A stretch of 32,000 nt of DNA from Haloquadratum walsbyi C23 (lineage in GTDB: Archaea; Halobacteriota; Halobacteria; Halobacteriales; Haloferacaceae), in contig NC_017459.1 in NCBI RefSeq assembly GCF_000237865.1, positions 840,001 through 872,000 on the forward strand, given 5' to 3'. Below the pieces are notes generated by a model. The model saw nothing but the letters and a program-made list of their open reading frames with translations, was not told where the DNA came from and did not search any database. Below, one piece after another: positions 2,207-32,000 of the stretch. Each line of letters starts with the position of its first letter. The first letter of the stretch is position 1. Made by a program: the position numbers and the translations under genes.

Positions 2207-4119
2207 GTGAACTTTCTGTATTAATTTCTACTGTGGTATCCATATTTACGCTAACTGAGATGTGTATGCAATTAGCTCTCTCTGCTTTCGCTAATATCAC
2301 GTATACGATACTCCCAGCTGCTGCAGCACCGTCATTACCAACCATCGAGTTCGTAATTCCATTTCCGCCAGCATTTGCAATCCTCAGCATTGCGCTCATT
2401 GCGCCGTTTCTCTCTCGTCGAGTTGGTCATATACTCGGGGTAATTGTGACCGCTGGTGTTGCGGTTATCTCACTTGTTTCACCTGTTGGTGCACACTTAC
2501 CCGTTACATTTCTTGGATTTGATGCTGTATTATTCAATGTAGATGCATTCTCCCGAGTGATGGGCATTATCTTTGGAACCATTGGTGCAGCGGCAGTCCT
2601 CTATTCATACTCTTCACAAGCATCAAATCGGCAGACAGCCTTTGCGCTTGGCTATGTCGGGACGAGTATTGGCTCCGTGTTTGCCGGTGATTGGCTAACG
2701 CTTGTTTTCTTTTGGGAATTGATGGCTATCACCAGTACAGCGCTAGTCTGGGACTACGGCGGTGAAGCCGTTCGTGCTGGATTCAGATATGCTATTTATC
2801 ACGGTATTGGTGGAAGCTTATTGATTGCAGCCGTGATCTGGCATTATGTCGACGTCGGGTCATTCTTATTTACTGCAGCAAGTGGATTAACAGCGGGCAT
2901 TCCTGCTGCGCTTGCTGCTGTTGGTATTGGTGTGAACGTTGGATTCGTTGGGTTACATGTGTGGCTTCCAGATACATACCCTCGACCACACATCGCTGCA
3001 AGCGTCTTTCTCTCTGTTTATACAACAAAGACTGGTGTGTATGGTCTTGCCCGCGCGTTCCCTGATGGGAATGTTCTTATTGCATATATGGGTGCAGCAA
3101 TGGCTTTGGTTGGTGTTGTATATGCACTCTTACAAAATGATATGCGCCGATTGCTATCGTATCATATTCAATCACAAGTTGGATATATGGTCGCTGGGAT
3201 TGGCATTGGAACCGCTCTCGCAACAGCAGGCGCGTTTGCGCATATATTCAATCATATTCTATACAAAGCACTGCTGTTCATGACTGCTGGTGTTGTTGTC
3301 TCTCGCGTCGGTGAAGAAAATCTAAAATACCTTGGTGGACTCCGTCGATATCTCCCACTTACTGCATTAGCGTTTGGTATTGCGGCGCTATCAATTAGCG
3401 GATTTCCTGGATTTAATGGCTTCGTCAGTAAAGGAATGATTACTGCAGCAGCAGATAAAAAGAACTTTGATGGAATTTTCTATATACTACTTGCTGCCGG
3501 TGTCGGAACGTTCATGTCATTCATCAAATTTGGGTATTATGCATTTATCCGCTCAACTCCTGATTCAGGAGTGATTGCTGGAAGTGAAAATGCCGATACT
3601 GATATTATCTCATCAGCGATAGGTCAGCGTGTTGCAATGCTTAGCGTCGCAACGTTATGTATTTTATTTGGGCTATTCCCAGATGCACTCTTTGCACTTC
3701 TCCCAGGAAGTACCACTGATGCACATCCATTCACACTGGGGCATCTTACCGAAGGCATTGTGCTTGCCGTGCTTGGCATCATTGGGTTTGCACTCGTCAA
3801 ACGACCAATTTCTAATATTGGGAAGGTTCCTGATATTGATGCAGTGATTAATCCCGGAGCATTTTATCTTACTCGTGGACTTGTCCGTGGAACAACAGAG
3901 ATATTCGCGATTGTTGATAATGCTATTCAAGATATCGCAACGCGCTCGCTTGAGATTACCGCTAACCCGTATGGTTCAATCCGACAACCGGCGGCAATAC
4001 TGCTTCAGCGAGATCCAGATACGCTCACTGATGGAAGTTTGCAAGCAACGATTGGAACAAGTGTGCTTCTCGTTGTTGTTGTCCTTGTTATTGCGTTTAT
4101 TGGGACCATGTCTATGTGA
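2203..4119 (+). CDS. mrpD: second MrpD/NuoN-like antiporter membrane subunit
   Basis: 638-aa polytopic ORF with paralogous motifs (WLPDTYPRPHIAASVFLSVYTKTGVYG-type, LLSYHIQSQVGYMVAGIG, HILYKALLFMTAG). ATGA overlap with the upstream gene at 2203-2206. The exact start is uncertain because internal Met codons follow. Confidence 0.8.
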   Translation: MSELSVLISTVVSIFTLTEMCMQLALSAFANITYTILPAAAAPSLPTIEFVIPFPPAFAILSIALIAPFLSRRVGHILGVIVTAGVAVISLVSPVGAHLPVTFLGFDAVLFNVDAFSRVMGIIFGTIGAAAVLYSYSSQASNRQTAFALGYVGTSIGSVFAGDWLTLVFFWELMAITSTALVWDYGGEAVRAGFRYAIYHGIGGSLLIAAVIWHYVDVGSFLFTAASGLTAGIPAALAAVGIGVNVGFVGLHVWLPDTYPRPHIAASVFLSVYTTKTGVYGLARAFPDGNVLIAYMGAAMALVGVVYALLQNDMRRLLSYHIQSQVGYMVAGIGIGTALATAGAFAHIFNHILYKALLFMTAGVVVSRVGEENLKYLGGLRRYLPLTALAFGIAALSISGFPGFNGFVSKGMITAAADKKNFDGIFYILLAAGVGTFMSFIKFGYYAFIRSTPDSGVIAGSENADTDIISSAIGQRVAMLSVATLCILFGLFPDALFALLPGSTTDAHPFTLGHLTEGIVLAVLGIIGFALVKRPISNIGKVPDIDAVINPGAFYLTRGLVRGTTEIFAIVDNAIQDIATRSLEITANPYGSIRQPAAILLQRDPDTLTDGSLQATIGTSVLLVVVVLVIAFIGTMSM

Positions 4120-4465
4120 GTTGAGTATAGCTACTCATATATCTCCGTTCAAGGATTCAAGCTCACACACTCACGTTCTGCAAGAAAAAAAGCGACCGTC
4201 CTGAACCAAATGATCATAGAACAAGGGTAACACGACCTCAAGTTAACAAAAATCGCTATTATACTACCTGTAGAGAGTAGACTGTTTGTGAGGACTGGCA
4301 ACGGAATATACCATTTATTACTCTTTTCTGAGTGCTGTTACCGTTATTCAAACAGCGGATCGATCACAAGAGCATGAGATCTTATCATCTCAGCATTATT
4401 TTCATGGAGTGAGCGGCGTCACTAACAAGCGAGTCTGGTGATATCAGTCGCTCTATACGTCCTTT

Positions 4466-5623
4466 TTACTCATCGAATTTCTCAGCAAGTTTATTTGCAA
4501 TGCTTGCGCCAAGAACCTGCTTTGAATCATTAATCACTGTCGTTGAGTCATCGACAATAATTGCACGCGTCTCAGCGTCACCCATCACTGAGGCATTATT
4601 TGCGACGACGAATGAAAGATCAACCCGATCGCGAAGACTCTCCGCAACAGCAACCATCGATTCTTCATCACCTGATGTTTCAGCTTTAAATCCAACCATC
4701 GGAAGGTCTGGGTACGCATTCCGAACTCCATCAAGTAATTTTTCAGTTGGTTCTAACTCAAGCGTTCGCGGTTTGCCTGATCGGATCTTTTCTGGGGCAG
4801 TATCAACAGTATAATCGCTAATTGCAGCCGCACAAATAAGTGCATCTACTCCGGTATCAAGCATCTCAAACGTCGCAGACCGCATATCTGCAGTTGACTC
4901 AACTGATCGTGTTTGTGCATAGTGGACATCGTCTCCCGTATGAATAAGTGTAACCTCAGCGCCACGTATGTGGCATTCACGTGCAACAGCTCGACCTGTC
5001 CGCCCCGAAGATCGATTAGTAAGCACTCGGATAGGGTCAATTGATTCCTTGGTCGCACCTGCGGTCACGACAATATGCTGTCCAACGAGCGGTTGTGACC
5101 CGACAGTGCTCGCTACTGCGGTGATGATTGCGTCCTCTGTTGCAATCTTCGCCTTTTCTTCCTCGATACGTGGGGAGACAAACGTCACACCCCATGATTC
5201 AATTGTCTCAATTGCATCAAGCACTCCTGGGTGATCATACATCGGCTCATGCATTGCAGGGACAACGACTACTGGAACATCCGCACCAAGTGCCGTCGTT
5301 GCACATGTTGTTACTGGGGTATCATCGACTGCAGTAGCGATCTTTCCGACGGTGTTTGCTGTTGCTGGAGCAAGCAATAGCACATCAGCCCATCCGGACC
5401 GACCGCACAGTCCGACATGTTCGACCTGACCGGTTATTTCTGTCACAACCGGGTTCTCAGTGGCAAACTCAACAGCCCATGGATGGATAATCCCCTGTGC
5501 GCTTTCGGTCATTACCCCACGGACAGTCGCACCCTGTCGACGAAGCTCATGGGCAAGTTCAACCACTTTGACAGCGGCTATACTCCCCGAAATACCCAGT
5601 GCAACATTAACACCGTCCAACAT
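4466..5623 (-). CDS. coaBC: bifunctional phosphopantothenoylcysteine decarboxylase / phosphopantothenate-cysteine ligase
   Basis: 385 aa. N-terminal flavoprotein domain (VALGISGSIAAVK, VVVVPAMH) followed by a CoaB-type domain (VTAGATKESIDPIRVLTNRSSG, ICAAAISDY). ATG at 5621-5623. Confidence 0.9.
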   Translation of the reverse strand: MLDGVNVALGISGSIAAVKVVELAHELRRQGATVRGVMTESAQGIIHPWAVEFATENPVVTEITGQVEHVGLCGRSGWADVLLLAPATANTVGKIATAVDDTPVTTCATTALGADVPVVVVPAMHEPMYDHPGVLDAIETIESWGVTFVSPRIEEEKAKIATEDAIITAVASTVGSQPLVGQHIVVTAGATKESIDPIRVLTNRSSGRTGRAVARECHIRGAEVTLIHTGDDVHYAQTRSVESTADMRSATFEMLDTGVDALICAAAISDYTVDTAPEKIRSGKPRTLELEPTEKLLDGVRNAYPDLPMVGFKAETSGDEESMVAVAESLRDRVDLSFVVANNASVMGDAETRAIIVDDSTTVINDSKQVLGASIANKLAEKFDE

Positions 5624-20039: not shown

Positions 20040-20330
20040 TTAAACCGCTGCTGTAAATGCGCTTGTAAAGTCATCAACTGTTGTCTGTACCTGTCGTGAC
20101 GCATCGCCGAGCGCATCGAGCGGATCAACATCTGCATCAGGTTCTGTTTGGATTGAGAGGACTGGCTCAGTCTGTCCTCCTGATTGCTCGGGATTAACAT
20201 CATATGTCGCGGCTGCAACCCCATCTGTCTGGAGCAAGGCTCCCTTTATTACATTCATGAATGTATGGTCCTCGCCAGCCACTTCAATACGGAGTTCAGT
20301 GTCCGTTCGTTCGATGACCCGTAATTCCAT
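20040..20330 (-). CDS. rpoL: DNA-directed RNA polymerase subunit L (Rpo11)
   Basis: 96 aa, [33 protein letters not shown]... This is a typical archaeal RpoL N-terminus with an acidic tail. Confidence 0.88.
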
Positions 20331-20382
20331 ACCTACCTTTTCTGATGATGGTGTTTCAATATTTCGTCTTTACGGAGAGTTG

Positions 20383-20389
20383 AAAAAAA
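20383..20389 (-). terminator. T7 tract (minus strand) following the relic stop codon of the MBL-hydrolase gene
   Basis: A7 on the plus strand, so T7 on the minus strand. It lies ~10 nt downstream of the left copy of the 16-nt repeat that mimics the MBL gene end. Confidence 0.35.
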
Positions 20390-20398
20390 GCCTCGTCT

Positions 20399-20414
20399 TT
20401 CAGGGCGGAGATGA
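20399..20414. repeat. left copy of the 16-nt direct repeat flanking the GC-rich block
   Basis: TTCAGGGCGGAGATGA compared with TTCAGCGCGGAGAGGA at 20870-20885 (14/16 identical). On the minus strand it reads TCA TCT CCG CCC TGA. Confidence 0.55.
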
Positions 20415-20869
20415 ATTCGACAATCCTCTACAACCGATATTATCAATTATCCCGGCGTCGTATCCTGCGGTAATCGGAAGACTCAGGCTCACTTCCCGTT
20501 GATATTGACGATTCCATACCTACCGCTGGCACCCCCGGTGGGGAGTACCTGGTTGAGATTCATTCGCCGTCTTCACACTACACCTACCGTTACTGGAGAC
20601 GGTCGGCAACGACCATGCAAACGGGGGGAGGGGGCGACAGCACACCAACACACGTCCCGTTCGCAGTTGCCCGGTATTCGGACGCCTCTGCTCAGACGAT
20701 ATCAAGGACGGGATAAGCGGATAGCGCGTCCTTCTCGGACGCTAGATAGATCATACCCCCGCTTTGAGGGTCGACGTGAGCGCACGAACTCGGTATTCAC
20801 CACGCGAGGTGAAGACGTTGCCTTCGTGGGGCGCCGGACGGCCCAACGCCCATGAAGGAATCCTTGCGC
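20415..20869. repeat. 455-nt GC-rich structured non-coding block between the MBL-hydrolase stop codon and its presumed original terminator (candidate non-autonomous insertion)
   Basis: 39/60 and 36/60 G+C in 20581-20640 and 20641-20700, against 22/60 in 20341-20400. Only Arg/Pro-rich ORFs are present. Hairpins include GGTCG-GCAA-CGACC 20601-20614 and AAGGACG...CGTCCTT 20704-20733. The block is bracketed by the 16-nt direct repeat. Confidence 0.5.
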
Positions 20870-20885
20870 TTCAGCGCGGAGAGGA
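20870..20885. repeat. right copy of the 16-nt direct repeat (the real 3' end of the MBL-hydrolase CDS)
   Basis: TTCAGCGCGGAGAGGA. On the minus strand this reads TCC TCT CCG CGC TGA, the last four codons plus the stop. Confidence 0.55.
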
Positions 20886-21914
20886 TGTCAAAAGTATTGT
20901 CTCAATATCAATATCACTCGCGATTTCGGGATTAATAATTCGATATTGTTGGCTATGTCCTCTACGCACGGGATCGACTCTTGTATCATTCTCAACCCGT
21001 TCTACAATTCCAGATTCAATAAGGCACATCAGATGGGCGAATGCTTCTCCAGGACCGTGGAGAATATGAATTGTATCAAGTTCACCAAATAATGCAGCAC
21101 TCACGTTCCACACATCTGTGGTACCGTGTTCAGTGAGGACGTCATATAATCGCTGTGTCCGTTTGACATGATGCGTACAAATTGTATCAACCCGGGGTGC
21201 TGGATTAATAATACGTTCCCTGTGACCAGGCCATATATGTTCAAGTTCCATCTTGGATAAGCGATCAAGACTATTGAGATATGTGCTAACTGGGGACTCA
21301 ACTCGAAGGTCCGCACCGCCGATATTTGGTGTATATTCCGGAAGAACAACATCGCCAACAAATGCGAATTTCTCTTTTTTATCACTATAGTGATATCCAA
21401 CGTGACCTGCTGTGTGTCCAGGTAGATGCTTGACTGTCAATTCGATATCTCCAGCAGAGATCGTTTCTCCATCGGTCACGGGGTCGACATCAACTGATTC
21501 ACCACCGATCCCGTTGAACCGATCAAGAAACGATAGTAACTCATCTTGCTTTGCTGCTGGAACACCCCATTCCTCAAGTCGCTGCTGTCGTACCTCTCGT
21601 CGTTTTGTTGAATTCTTTCCAGTTGCAATTAGGTCTGCGTCATCAGCGTGTGCACGGACTGTGGCCCCTGAGACATCCTGAATCTCTCCTGCGAGACCTG
21701 TGTGGTCAGCGTGCCAGTGTGTTAAAAGAATTTGATCGATTGATGACAATGAGACCCCAGCAGTGGTAAGTTCAGCCTCAAGTTCTGCTCGCGTCTCTGT
21801 GGTTGCAATACCAACATCAATCAGCGTGGTGACATTGCCGTCCAATAAATATGCGTTATTATTTCCCTCGAATACTGCGTTTCCAAGTTGGATTTGACGG
21901 ACGTCGACTGTCAT
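20871..21914 (-). CDS. MBL-fold metallo-hydrolase with a C-terminal extension
   Basis: 347 aa with the HxHxDH motif (THWHADHTG) and downstream His/Asp ligand regions (LPGHTAGH, FVGD). Confidence 0.85.
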   Translation of the reverse strand: MTVDVRQIQLGNAVFEGNNNAYLLDGNVTTLIDVGIATTETRAELEAELTTAGVSLSSIDQILLTHWHADHTGLAGEIQDVSGATVRAHADDADLIATGKNSTKRREVRQQRLEEWGVPAAKQDELLSFLDRFNGIGGESVDVDPVTDGETISAGDIELTVKHLPGHTAGHVGYHYSDKKEKFAFVGDVVLPEYTPNIGGADLRVESPVSTYLNSLDRLSKMELEHIWPGHRERIINPAPRVDTICTHHVKRTQRLYDVLTEHGTTDVWNVSAALFGELDTIHILHGPGEAFAHLMCLIESGIVERVENDTRVDPVRRGHSQQYRIINPEIASDIDIETILLTSSPR

Positions 21915-31135: not shown

Positions 31136-31184
31136 AGAAATATCCGAGGAATCAAAAGGAGTTCCTTCGGCAAAACCTCCGCTG

Positions 31185-31259
31185 TGAAGTACTCTAGGGG
31201 CAAGCCTCCATGTTTCACCATTCGGAGCTTTGCACCGCACCCAACAGGCGAATTTAGTT
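31185..31259 (+). repeat. diverged copy (A) of the hairpin-bearing intergenic repeat
   Basis: Aligns collinearly with 31576-31649 at roughly three-quarters identity by eye (GTGAAGTAC...CAAGCC...TTCACC...TGCAC.GCACCC..CAGGCGAATTTA.TT). Confidence 0.6.
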
Positions 31260-31575: not shown

Positions 31576-31742
31576 GTGAAGTACCTCGGGGTCAAGCCCC
31601 GAGGCTTCACCGTTTGGGGTCTGCACAGCACCCGCAGGCGAATTTAATTCCCTCCGACCTTCCCCGTGAGGGGTCGGCTGGAATTAACACCCGAACTCCG
31701 CGAGGAGTCCGTGGAGGTCGGCGGCTTCACTCTGCCCGTTGA
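31576..31742 (+). repeat. long copy (D) of the hairpin-bearing intergenic repeat
   Basis: Contains a 35-nt hairpin, GTGAAG-TA-CCTCGGGG-TCAAG-CCCCGAGG-CTTCAC (31576-31610). It then has a segment shared with copy A, a 44-nt near-palindrome (31644-31687), a second GGCTTCAC (31723-31730) and the tail CTCTGCCCGTTGA. Confidence 0.65.
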
Positions 31743-31921
31743 AACCCCCGTCGCACCACCATAGTAGCGGATTTTGAGAGCGGCCACATTTCCAAACTGT
31801 CAAACGACCAGCGAAGGAAATGAGGTCTTCATTTCCATACTTTGATGGGTTGTTTCTGGTGGTTGTCGCCATACCAACGCTAGAAATATTTAAATTTGTG
31901 GCATATAGTGACGGCATTCAC

Positions 31922-31961
31922 CCTCGGGGTCAAGCCCCGAGGCACTCTGCCTGTTAATCTG
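31922..31961 (+). repeat. short copy (E) of the hairpin-bearing intergenic repeat
   Basis: CCTCGGGGTCAAGCCCCGAGG (31922-31942) is identical to 31584-31604. It is followed by CACTCTGCCTGTTAATCTG, which matches the tail of copy D. Confidence 0.65.
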
Positions 31962-32000
31962 TAGATAAGTCGCGTACGCTACTCTCACAATACATAGTTT

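Follow-up and report, generated by a model that had tools for sequence, protein, structure and literature searches.

Palindrome-associated transposable elements (PATEs) were defined in Haloquadratum walsbyi by Dyall-Smith et al. (2011, PLoS One 6:e20968; PMC3119063). The tables of that study report more than 100 PATEs per H. walsbyi genome, with TTAC targets, ends that read ...GGATGTCAA, and types of 497-535 bp. The same study describes ISHwa24, a complete element whose ends are very similar to those of the element analysed here. For the insertion sequence IS608, cleavage occurs 3' of TTAC at a position 19 nt 5' of the left hairpin, and the right cleavage motif (CR) TCAA lies 10 nt 3' of the right hairpin (PMC3201880). 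The IS608 guide motif (GL) AAAG, located 5' of the left hairpin, guides TTAC (PMC3201880).

Noncoding RNAs are also associated with PATEs. VNG_R0052 is a PATE-derived ncRNA of Halobacterium salinarum (Gomes-Filho et al. 2015; PMC4615843), and a UUCA hairpin is common to sotRNAs and HgcC (PMC4615843). PATEs ‘often encode omega RNAs’ that are used in trans (PMC10055086). Furthermore, a 489-bp PATE present in Halorubrum lacusprofundi and in the virus HRTV-DL1 extends over the end of a gene and shows strong transcription at the 3' end of the element (PMC10544981).

We examined a window of 32,000 nt of H. walsbyi DNA (whole-window G+C content of 47.2%) in which a GC-rich block follows the gene for an MBL-fold hydrolase. 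The region matches H. walsbyi DSM 16790 (AM180088.1, locus L007, where the spacer between MBL and rpoL lies at about 840449-840967) and nine metagenomic contigs at 98% identity, and the MBL-fold hydrolase is 100% identical to protein P0001 of H. walsbyi. Look-ups of exact protein sequences retrieved a record for RpoL but none for the MBL and HisF products of the window. On the minus strand, the MBL gene (20871-21914, 347 amino acids as now encoded, assigned by the list of open reading frames, Pfam Lactamase_B and junction analysis) is followed by a 540-nt spacer with the GC-rich block, and then by its downstream neighbour rpoL (20040-20330, RNA polymerase subunit L/Rpb11-like, Pfam RNA_pol_L_2), with synteny retained in all loci.

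We conclude that the block is very probably a 518-nt PATE, namely a transposase-less IS200/IS605 derivative that inserted in the H. walsbyi lineage after its split from sister lineages and before the H. walsbyi strains diverged. IS605-like ends together with the lack of a transposase gene place the element in this class. This kind of element is already known, having been described first in H. walsbyi, and is not a new type of integration. The locus itself is of little import, as it is one of the more than 100 catalogued PATEs per H. walsbyi genome.

Empty sites and the point of insertion

A preliminary description of this locus presented the block as a 455-nt element (20415-20869) of 60-65% G+C that is packed with stem-loops and flanked by a 16-nt duplication of the end of the MBL gene. 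The block is indeed GC-rich relative to the adjoining 60-nt flanks (36.7% and 31.7%), but its G+C content is 57.4% for 20415-20869 and 59.5% for 20500-20869, slightly under the range given. The two 16-mers (20399-20414 and 20870-20885) are identical at 14 of 16 positions, and matches of at least 14/16 were reached in 0 of 500 boundary shuffles and in only 1 of 320 equally spaced pairs in the window. As described, the right 16-mer contains the present MBL stop codon (TGA, 20873-20871, minus strand). The left 16-mer likewise reads S-S-P-P-stop and is followed by a T7 tract at 20383-20389, features that had been taken as the original stop and terminator. This real, non-random direct repeat and the SSPP-stop followed by a T-run favour the proposal that integration of an element immediately behind the MBL stop duplicated approximately 16 bp, through att-site recombination or a casposon-like integration.

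The sister lineages give a different account of the site. MBL homologues are present in two sister Haloquadratum lineages at 79% and 72% identity, and the corresponding loci (L015 and L011) have the same synteny. In both, the MBL stop lies 25 nt before the rpoL ATG, and therefore these are empty sites, whereas this distance is 540 nt in the window and in 10 H. walsbyi contigs. Both sister genes terminate ...GAG ACG AAA TAC TGA aacac. The gene-end string of the sisters, AGACGAAATATTGAAACACC, is retained on the minus strand of the window (20370-20351), where it sits downstream of both the left 16-mer and the T-run. Here the displaced old end of the MBL gene, now non-coding, can be read at 20356-20373 (minus strand) as GTA AAG ACG AAA TAT TGA, or V-K-T-K-Y-stop, and has AGACGAAATAYTGAAACA in common with the corresponding MBL gene ends in L011 and L015. 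The old stop (TGA, 20358-20356) is located such that this displaced end is 25 nt upstream of the rpoL ATG.

Because the old gene-end string lies beyond the left 16-mer and the T-run, the insertion must have occurred within the old coding sequence, and both 16-mers arrived with the insert. In silico removal of exactly 20374-20891 restores an MBL protein of 346 amino acids that ends ...IETILVKTKY. The sister proteins are also 346 amino acids long and end ...LFVETKY and ...FLSETKY. The empty sites and this exact excision indicate that host bases were neither duplicated nor lost at the junction. Thus, the search recommended previously for empty sites and for additional copies was productive in both respects, with empty sites in the sister lineages and copies elsewhere. 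However, the empty site predicted under the duplication proposal, ...CCGCGCTGAAAGACGAGGCTTTTTTT, is not the one found, which instead reads ...ATACTTGTAAAGACGAAATATTGA.

These findings leave the duplication proposal with almost no credence. The empty sites of L011 and L015 carry neither 16-mer, and only an empty site with TCNTCTCCGCNCTGAA would revive this reading. The old stop is downstream of the supposed left copy, and both motifs border each copy of the family, at loci that are unrelated, as well as a complete tnpB element (see below). The T-run is within the left end of the element and is interrupted in other strains, so neither it nor the left 16-mer represents the old terminator or stop. 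Since the border repeats belong to the inserted DNA and are missing from the empty sites, att-site or casposon-like integration need not be invoked. The locus provides a worked example of how end repeats of the IS200/IS605 type can be mistaken for a target duplication.

The insertion does lie, as proposed, at the very 3' end of the MBL gene, except that the element entered the old coding sequence five codons before its end rather than after the stop. The TTAC target fell in MBL codons 342-343, and the last four codons plus the stop were displaced 518 nt downstream. As a result of the insertion, the C-terminus of the MBL protein changed, with ...VKTKY lost and ...LTSSPR gained. The final six codons (LTSSPR) and the stop of the present gene are the antisense of the right end of the element, and the present stop itself is the antisense of the TTCA tetraloop in its right hairpin.

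The element entered 43-44 nt upstream of the rpoL ATG. A conserved AAATATT at positions -34 to -28 relative to this ATG may be a TATA box, and an insertion at -43/-44 spares it, which may explain why an insertion so near the essential rpoL gene was tolerated. The locus is a second worked example, in which an insertion recodes a protein C-terminus with a stop derived from a hairpin loop and leaves the putative rpoL promoter region untouched. The insert is carried by all 10 other H. walsbyi contigs and is absent from L011 and L015. Its presence in all H. walsbyi strains and not in the sisters indicates that the insertion preceded the ~2% divergence of these strains but followed their separation from the sister lineages.

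Ends, relatives and mobility of the element

An alignment of copies, another step proposed in the preliminary description, establishes both the termini and the target. TTAC directly precedes the window copy and all 17 of the other aligned family copies, and every aligned copy terminates ...GGATGTCAA, at unrelated loci. From this flank and this end, the element in the window corresponds to 20374-20891 on the plus strand, which is 518 nt (522 with TTAC) and replaces the earlier limits of 20415-20869. These boundaries agree with the empty sites, the excision and the family homology, and the element is a non-coding PATE that is antisense to MBL and rpoL. The TTAC (20370-20373, plus strand) is transposon-adjacent host DNA that was part of the old MBL codons GTA-A, read on the minus strand. 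More broadly, TTAC precedes 27 of 35 elements that have the same right end and for which the left end was found. A 19-mer from the right end is present in at least 120 stretches of haloarchaeal genomes, and its few bacterial matches are near the number expected by chance.

Both ends carry a subterminal hairpin. The left-end module (20387-20410, plus strand) comprises AAAG (20387-20390), which is invariant or nearly so in alignments of the family, followed by the hairpin CCTCGTCT/TTCA/GGGCGGAG at 20391-20410, which is supported by covariation of helix 2. The right end (20857-20891, plus strand) reads GGAA-TCCTTGCGC/TTCA/GCGCGGAGA-GGATG-TCAA, with the hairpin (helix 24, which folds as single-stranded DNA) at 20861-20882 and the terminal cleavage motif TCAA at 20888-20891. 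Both hairpins have a TTCA loop followed by a G-rich 3' arm, and they are oriented alike. The left 16-mer consists of the TTCA loop and the 3' arm of the left hairpin, and the right 16-mer is the equivalent portion of the right hairpin. The 16-mers are therefore direct repeats that recur at every copy. By inspection, the element termini (GGAGAG... and ...GTCAA) are not inverted repeats. The A7/T7 tract at 20383-20389 within the left end reads T6CT in other strains, and relatives carry GAGGAGAAAG at this location. We discounted an apparent third occurrence of the motif (TCTCCG...AAAGACGA, 20381-20363), since other strains have TTTCCC in place of TCTCCG.

The layout of these ends is that of the IS200/IS605 group: insertion 3' of a specific tetranucleotide, no target duplication, direct subterminal palindromes, and the arrangement of the left cleavage motif CL (TTAC, external to the element), GL (AAAG) and CR (TCAA, the final 4 nt). 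As with IS608 of Helicobacter pylori, the prototype of this group, insertion is 3' of TTAC with no gain or loss of DNA, the element ends in TCAA, and AAAG is located 5' of the left hairpin. The asymmetric spacing is also similar, with left cleavage ~17-19 nt from the hairpin (17 nt in the window element) and right cleavage ~9-10 nt from it. In contrast to IS608, which is ~1.8 kb and carries tnpA and tnpB, the window element lacks both genes, and beyond the short motifs the sequences are unrelated.

The closest known elements are the H. walsbyi PATEs, specifically HqIRS54, the HqIRS56-type subtypes (497-535 bp) and the complete ISHwa24, which share TTAC targets and GGATGTCAA 3' ends. Like these PATEs, the window element has no transposase, no ITR and no target duplication, has similar near-terminal palindromes of the IS605 type, and at 518 nt is within the catalogued size range. 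At least 17 dispersed copies exist elsewhere, as expected for a PATE. Unlike the Table S9 examples, its left and right ends are similar rather than identical. The 489-bp PATE of H. lacusprofundi and HRTV-DL1 is also comparable, at the level of description only, in being haloarchaeal, of similar size and at a gene end.

The previous judgement that the block contains no credible open reading frame is supported. Neither the element nor its relatives have a conserved ORF or a Pfam match, and the open frames are Arg-rich and differ between copies. A decayed protein gene was rejected because GC content by codon position gives no clear frame, and a TnpA-type IS200 element, which was considered because of the ~600-nt size, was rejected because there is no conserved ORF and no Pfam match. 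A TBLASTN search with the interior translation matched only the same short elements. The TnpB protein of Natronomonas pharaonis had no significant match in the insert, and a TnpB C-terminal peptide gave only short, weak matches in mixed frames. Neither tnpA nor tnpB is encoded in the window copy or its relatives. The element is therefore a non-autonomous derivative rather than an autonomous IS, and must be mobilised in trans.

By analogy with the biology of this family, a Y1 (HUH) TnpA supplied in trans would have excised the top strand as a single-stranded circle. The enzyme would have recognised the two subterminal hairpins together with the AAAG/TTAC and TCAA cleavage logic, and the circle would then have been joined to single-stranded target DNA 3' of TTAC without duplicating the target. 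Mobilisation in trans by TnpA would explain the small size of the element. Counting against this explanation, which we consider the best available, nearly all H. walsbyi tnpA genes are pseudogenes (PMC3119063).

Relatives of the element are distributed among Halobacteria. In BLASTN searches against plasmids, three Halorussus plasmids were found to carry full-length relatives (97% coverage, ~79% identity), and Haladaptatus to carry partial ones. In Halorubrum, Natrinema, Natronomonas, Halobaculum, Haloarcula and others, the same search of plasmids matched only the first 33-41 nt, at 88-94% identity. On N. pharaonis PL131, the conserved terminus is directly 3' of an annotated TnpB gene (Pfam OrfB_IS605 and Cas12f1-like_TNB). 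The complete 1585-nt tnpB element of this species (L022) matches the insert at 86% identity upstream and 87.5% downstream of tnpB, and nowhere else. Since the ends of the insert match L022 on both sides of tnpB, the top strand of the element is the plus strand of the window. No further copies were found within the 32-kb window, and the element had no match in the ‘phages’ collection (haloviruses).

These relatives bear on whether a full-length IS with tnpB (or with tnpA and tnpB) had inserted here and was then shortened at this site to 518 nt through internal deletion. Core deletions in IS605-type elements are frequent in H. walsbyi (PMC3119063), the 3' ~155 nt of the family is homologous to the 3' ends of tnpB elements, and the window copy does carry deletions. 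However, the interior of the window element is not that of a tnpB-carrying IS. Among the 35 copies for which the left end was found, 22 are 1.4-1.9 kb and 13 are short, and the interior is common only to short elements and is absent from all 22 long elements sampled. An interior motif recovered 13 further elements from metagenomes, nine of which are complete (612-624 nt) and follow TTAC with different flanks. The 17 other aligned copies are 604-624 nt long, share this interior, and are located at unrelated loci in several genera, which defines a full size of ~615 nt. A profile search added further full or cut copies of the family. Reduction in place is consequently very unlikely. Relative to the ~615-nt form, the window copy differs by only two deletions, and it therefore most simply arrived as a ~615-nt PATE.

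RNA structure of the element family

A family structure was derived from an alignment of 18 sequences. The consensus fold has an energy of -166 kcal/mol on the top strand versus -122 kcal/mol on the opposite strand, and comprises 142 pairs in 24 helices. Of the aligned cells, 96.1% are paired versus 89.1 ± 0.3 in shuffles, and 40 pairs are changed on both sides versus 25.8 ± 2.6 in shuffles. The covariation score is 0.259, compared with 0.137 for shuffles and 0.05-0.07 for slid registers, although derivation of the structure from these same sequences favours it over the slid controls. None of 500 shuffles reached any of the observed measures. When the same pairs are evaluated on the opposite strand, pairing falls to 86% because G·U pairs become A·C. 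Helices 9, 12, 14, 17 and 18 each exhibit three or more pair types.

These results modify the earlier view that the block is packed with stem-loops. Folding of the window copy as a single sequence is no better than shuffles (MFE z = -1.3 and -1.2 for the two strands). The structure is instead a property of the element family on the plus strand, of which the window copy retains 90 of 142 pairs.

Two regions of the family structure can be distinguished in addition to the left end. A family-conserved central domain (20383-20672, plus strand), which is seen only in short elements, is supported by an nhmmer profile match, by alignments and by helices 5-13. None of the tnpB-carrying elements sampled has a counterpart of the central ~250 nt of the family, which also matches no Rfam family. 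A 3' module (approximately 20737-20891, plus strand), which includes helices 21-24, is homologous to the 3' end of tnpB-carrying elements. With nhmmer, the portion of the family model at ~460-615 (the last ~155 nt) matches 22 other loci with E values of 1e-8 to 1e-17. Nine of these 22 loci have an ORF of 426-449 amino acids on the same strand, with 54 nt between its stop and the right end. One of these ORFs (L090) was scanned against Pfam and is TnpB (OrfB_IS605 and Cas12f1-like_TNB).

In searches for known structured RNAs, neither the window nor any of nine relatives had an Rfam match that reached its gathering score, and RNase P RNA and SRP RNA were rejected. No tRNA or tmRNA was found. The best sub-threshold match is HgcC (RF00062), with 22.4 bits and E = 0.008 on the plus strand at 20724-20903, far under the gathering score of 50. 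Intron RNAs would be expected to have a terminal G, or to have GUGYG...AY ends. A group I or group II intron (IStron-like) was set aside, as Rfam gave no intron match and the GG...TCAA ends are unsuitable.

As in sotRNAs/omega RNAs, VNG_R0052 and HgcC, the right-end hairpin at the 3' end of the element has a UUCA tetraloop. The likeness to HgcC is limited to this hairpin motif, and its presence in both sotRNAs/omega RNAs and HgcC explains the weak HgcC match. VNG_R0052 is short and joins a left end to a right end, whereas the family to which the window element belongs has ~500 nt of additional structured interior.

As judged from sequence comparisons, the 3' module appears to qualify as an omega/sotRNA region by its position on the top strand, its homology to tnpB 3' ends and its conserved scaffold structure. 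Given the homology of the 3' ~155 nt to tnpB 3' ends, the ~615-nt family most likely encodes a guide RNA scaffold of the omega/sotRNA type that would be used in trans by TnpB. For any such RNA made from the window copy, the flank at 20892-20911 (plus strand), which is antisense to the 3' coding region of MBL, would correspond to the guide portion, as suggested by its position and by the architecture known for these RNAs (PMC10055086). However, the central domain has no counterpart in tnpB elements, and so applying ‘omega RNA’ to the whole structured RNA exceeds the evidence. We raise only tentatively, and with more doubt than belief, the notion that the family goes beyond fused IS ends with an ordinary omega RNA and represents a large RNA of ~24 helices, tightly held at 604-624 nt in different genera. 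Such an RNA could be a trans-acting guide of unusual length or else an independent structured RNA that spreads via IS605 ends. A ~615-nt family that is found across Halobacteria, has a covarying top-strand structure and has no Rfam model is a reasonable candidate for Rfam and for a trans-acting guide RNA of TnpB.

Decay of the H. walsbyi copy

The window copy has diverged from the family in several ways. It has two alignment gaps, one of 22 nt at columns 105-126 and another of ~81 nt at columns 337-417 (after about 20672). These two deletions account for the loss of 36 of the 142 family pairs and substitutions for another 16, leaving the 90 noted above and several helices broken or deleted, whereas other family copies keep 125-142 pairs. 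As single-stranded DNA, its left hairpin has a folding energy of -1.4 kcal/mol, versus -9.8 kcal/mol for the relative at L151.

A function selected by the host might nonetheless be considered, such as a structured 3' UTR for MBL, a regulator or insulator of rpoL, or an active plus-strand guide of the omega type. The insert is fixed in all 11 sequences of the H. walsbyi lineage, and it retains an intact right-end hairpin as well as 90 of the family pairs. In addition, PATE-derived RNAs are expressed in other haloarchaea, and one of these affects growth (PMC4615843, PMC10544981). Nevertheless, we consider a host-selected function to be unlikely. The element is absent from the sister lineages, and among H. 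walsbyi strains it varies about three times more than the MBL coding sequence (variable columns of 4.6% for the element, 1.6% for MBL and 0.3% for rpoL). Moreover, the structure that is conserved in the family lies on the strand antisense to MBL, the single-sequence fold is equivalent to shuffles, and 52 of 142 pairs have been lost.

The deletions, broken pairs, drift towards AT, variation among strains and weak left hairpin together suggest that the window copy is most likely an immobile, near-neutral fossil that would be transcribed at most as an antisense part of the MBL 3' UTR. Its private substitutions comprise 34 GC>AT changes versus 6 AT>GC changes, a bias expected for unconstrained DNA in a genome of 47% G+C. 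Correspondingly, the G+C content of the element is 56.6% in the window versus 60-67% in relatives, with 47% for the host. The block also serves as a worked example of a GC-rich island in a low-GC genome that is imported mobile DNA drifting to the composition of its host.

Gene ends at the MBL-rpoL junction

The TTCA tetraloop in the right-end hairpin of the decayed 518-nt PATE (20374-20891, plus strand), when read in antisense, is the current TGA stop codon of the MBL-fold hydrolase (MBL) gene (20870-20873, minus strand). Similarly, the final six codons of this gene, encoding LTSSPR, are the antisense of the 3' arm of the hairpin and the element terminus. The displaced former end of MBL, which reads VKTKY-stop, resides in the 43 nt of native DNA that remain 5' of rpoL (20331-20373, minus strand). 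This same segment carries AAATATT at positions -34 to -28 relative to the rpoL ATG, and the motif is kept in both sister Haloquadratum lineages with empty sites at this junction. AAATATT may be the rpoL TATA box, which would then be situated within the former 3' end of MBL.

An A7/T7 run in the left end of the element (20383-20389) is found in the window only. It is absent as such from ten other H. walsbyi contigs, where one additional base breaks the T-run to yield T6CT on the minus strand.

Family copies at synteny breakpoints

Two copies of the PATE on Halorussus plasmids (loci L016 and L017, each at 4001-4598) are flanked on one side by the same genes, which encode an MFS transporter, a PAP2 phosphatase and an aryl-sulfate sulfotransferase, whereas the genes on the other side are unrelated. 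These copies therefore lie at a synteny breakpoint. Two metagenomic copies (L146 and L155) have a common right flank and different left flanks.

Further occurrences of the right-end motif

Among the matches listed, the 19-nt haloarchaeal right-end motif is also present in a few bacterial assemblies, namely the Stutzerimonas stutzeri MAG UBA2301 (L038, L054 and L072), Kitasatospora (L057 and L075), Scytonema (L065) and Endozoicomonas (L084). In the Stutzerimonas MAG, the motif lies about 20 nt or less from the end of three fetched stretches. Approximately 9 matches in 596 Gb are expected by chance, and the bacterial matches may reflect chance, contamination or an assembly-breaking repeat.

Two more right ends of the same type (L052 and L062) occur in the MAG 'Haloquadratum sp.' LUM.47 (~50% G+C). 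Both read ...GCGCTTGAGCGCGGRGAGGATGTCAA, with a TTGA loop in place of TTCA, and no intact tnpB-sized ORF was found upstream of them on the same strand.

A second PATE in the window

Another PATE, not related to the element at 20374-20891, is located at 31576-31965 on the minus strand and spans 390 nt counting its TCTAC target. Its two ends, GTGAAGTACCTCGGGGTCAAGCCCCGAGGCTTCACC ... GGCATTCACCCTCGGGGTCAAGCCCCGAGGCACTCTGCCTGTTAATCTGTAGA, fit the published HqIRS46 type. A solitary, degenerate copy of its right-end hairpin (31184-31225) lies 392 nt upstream of this PATE.
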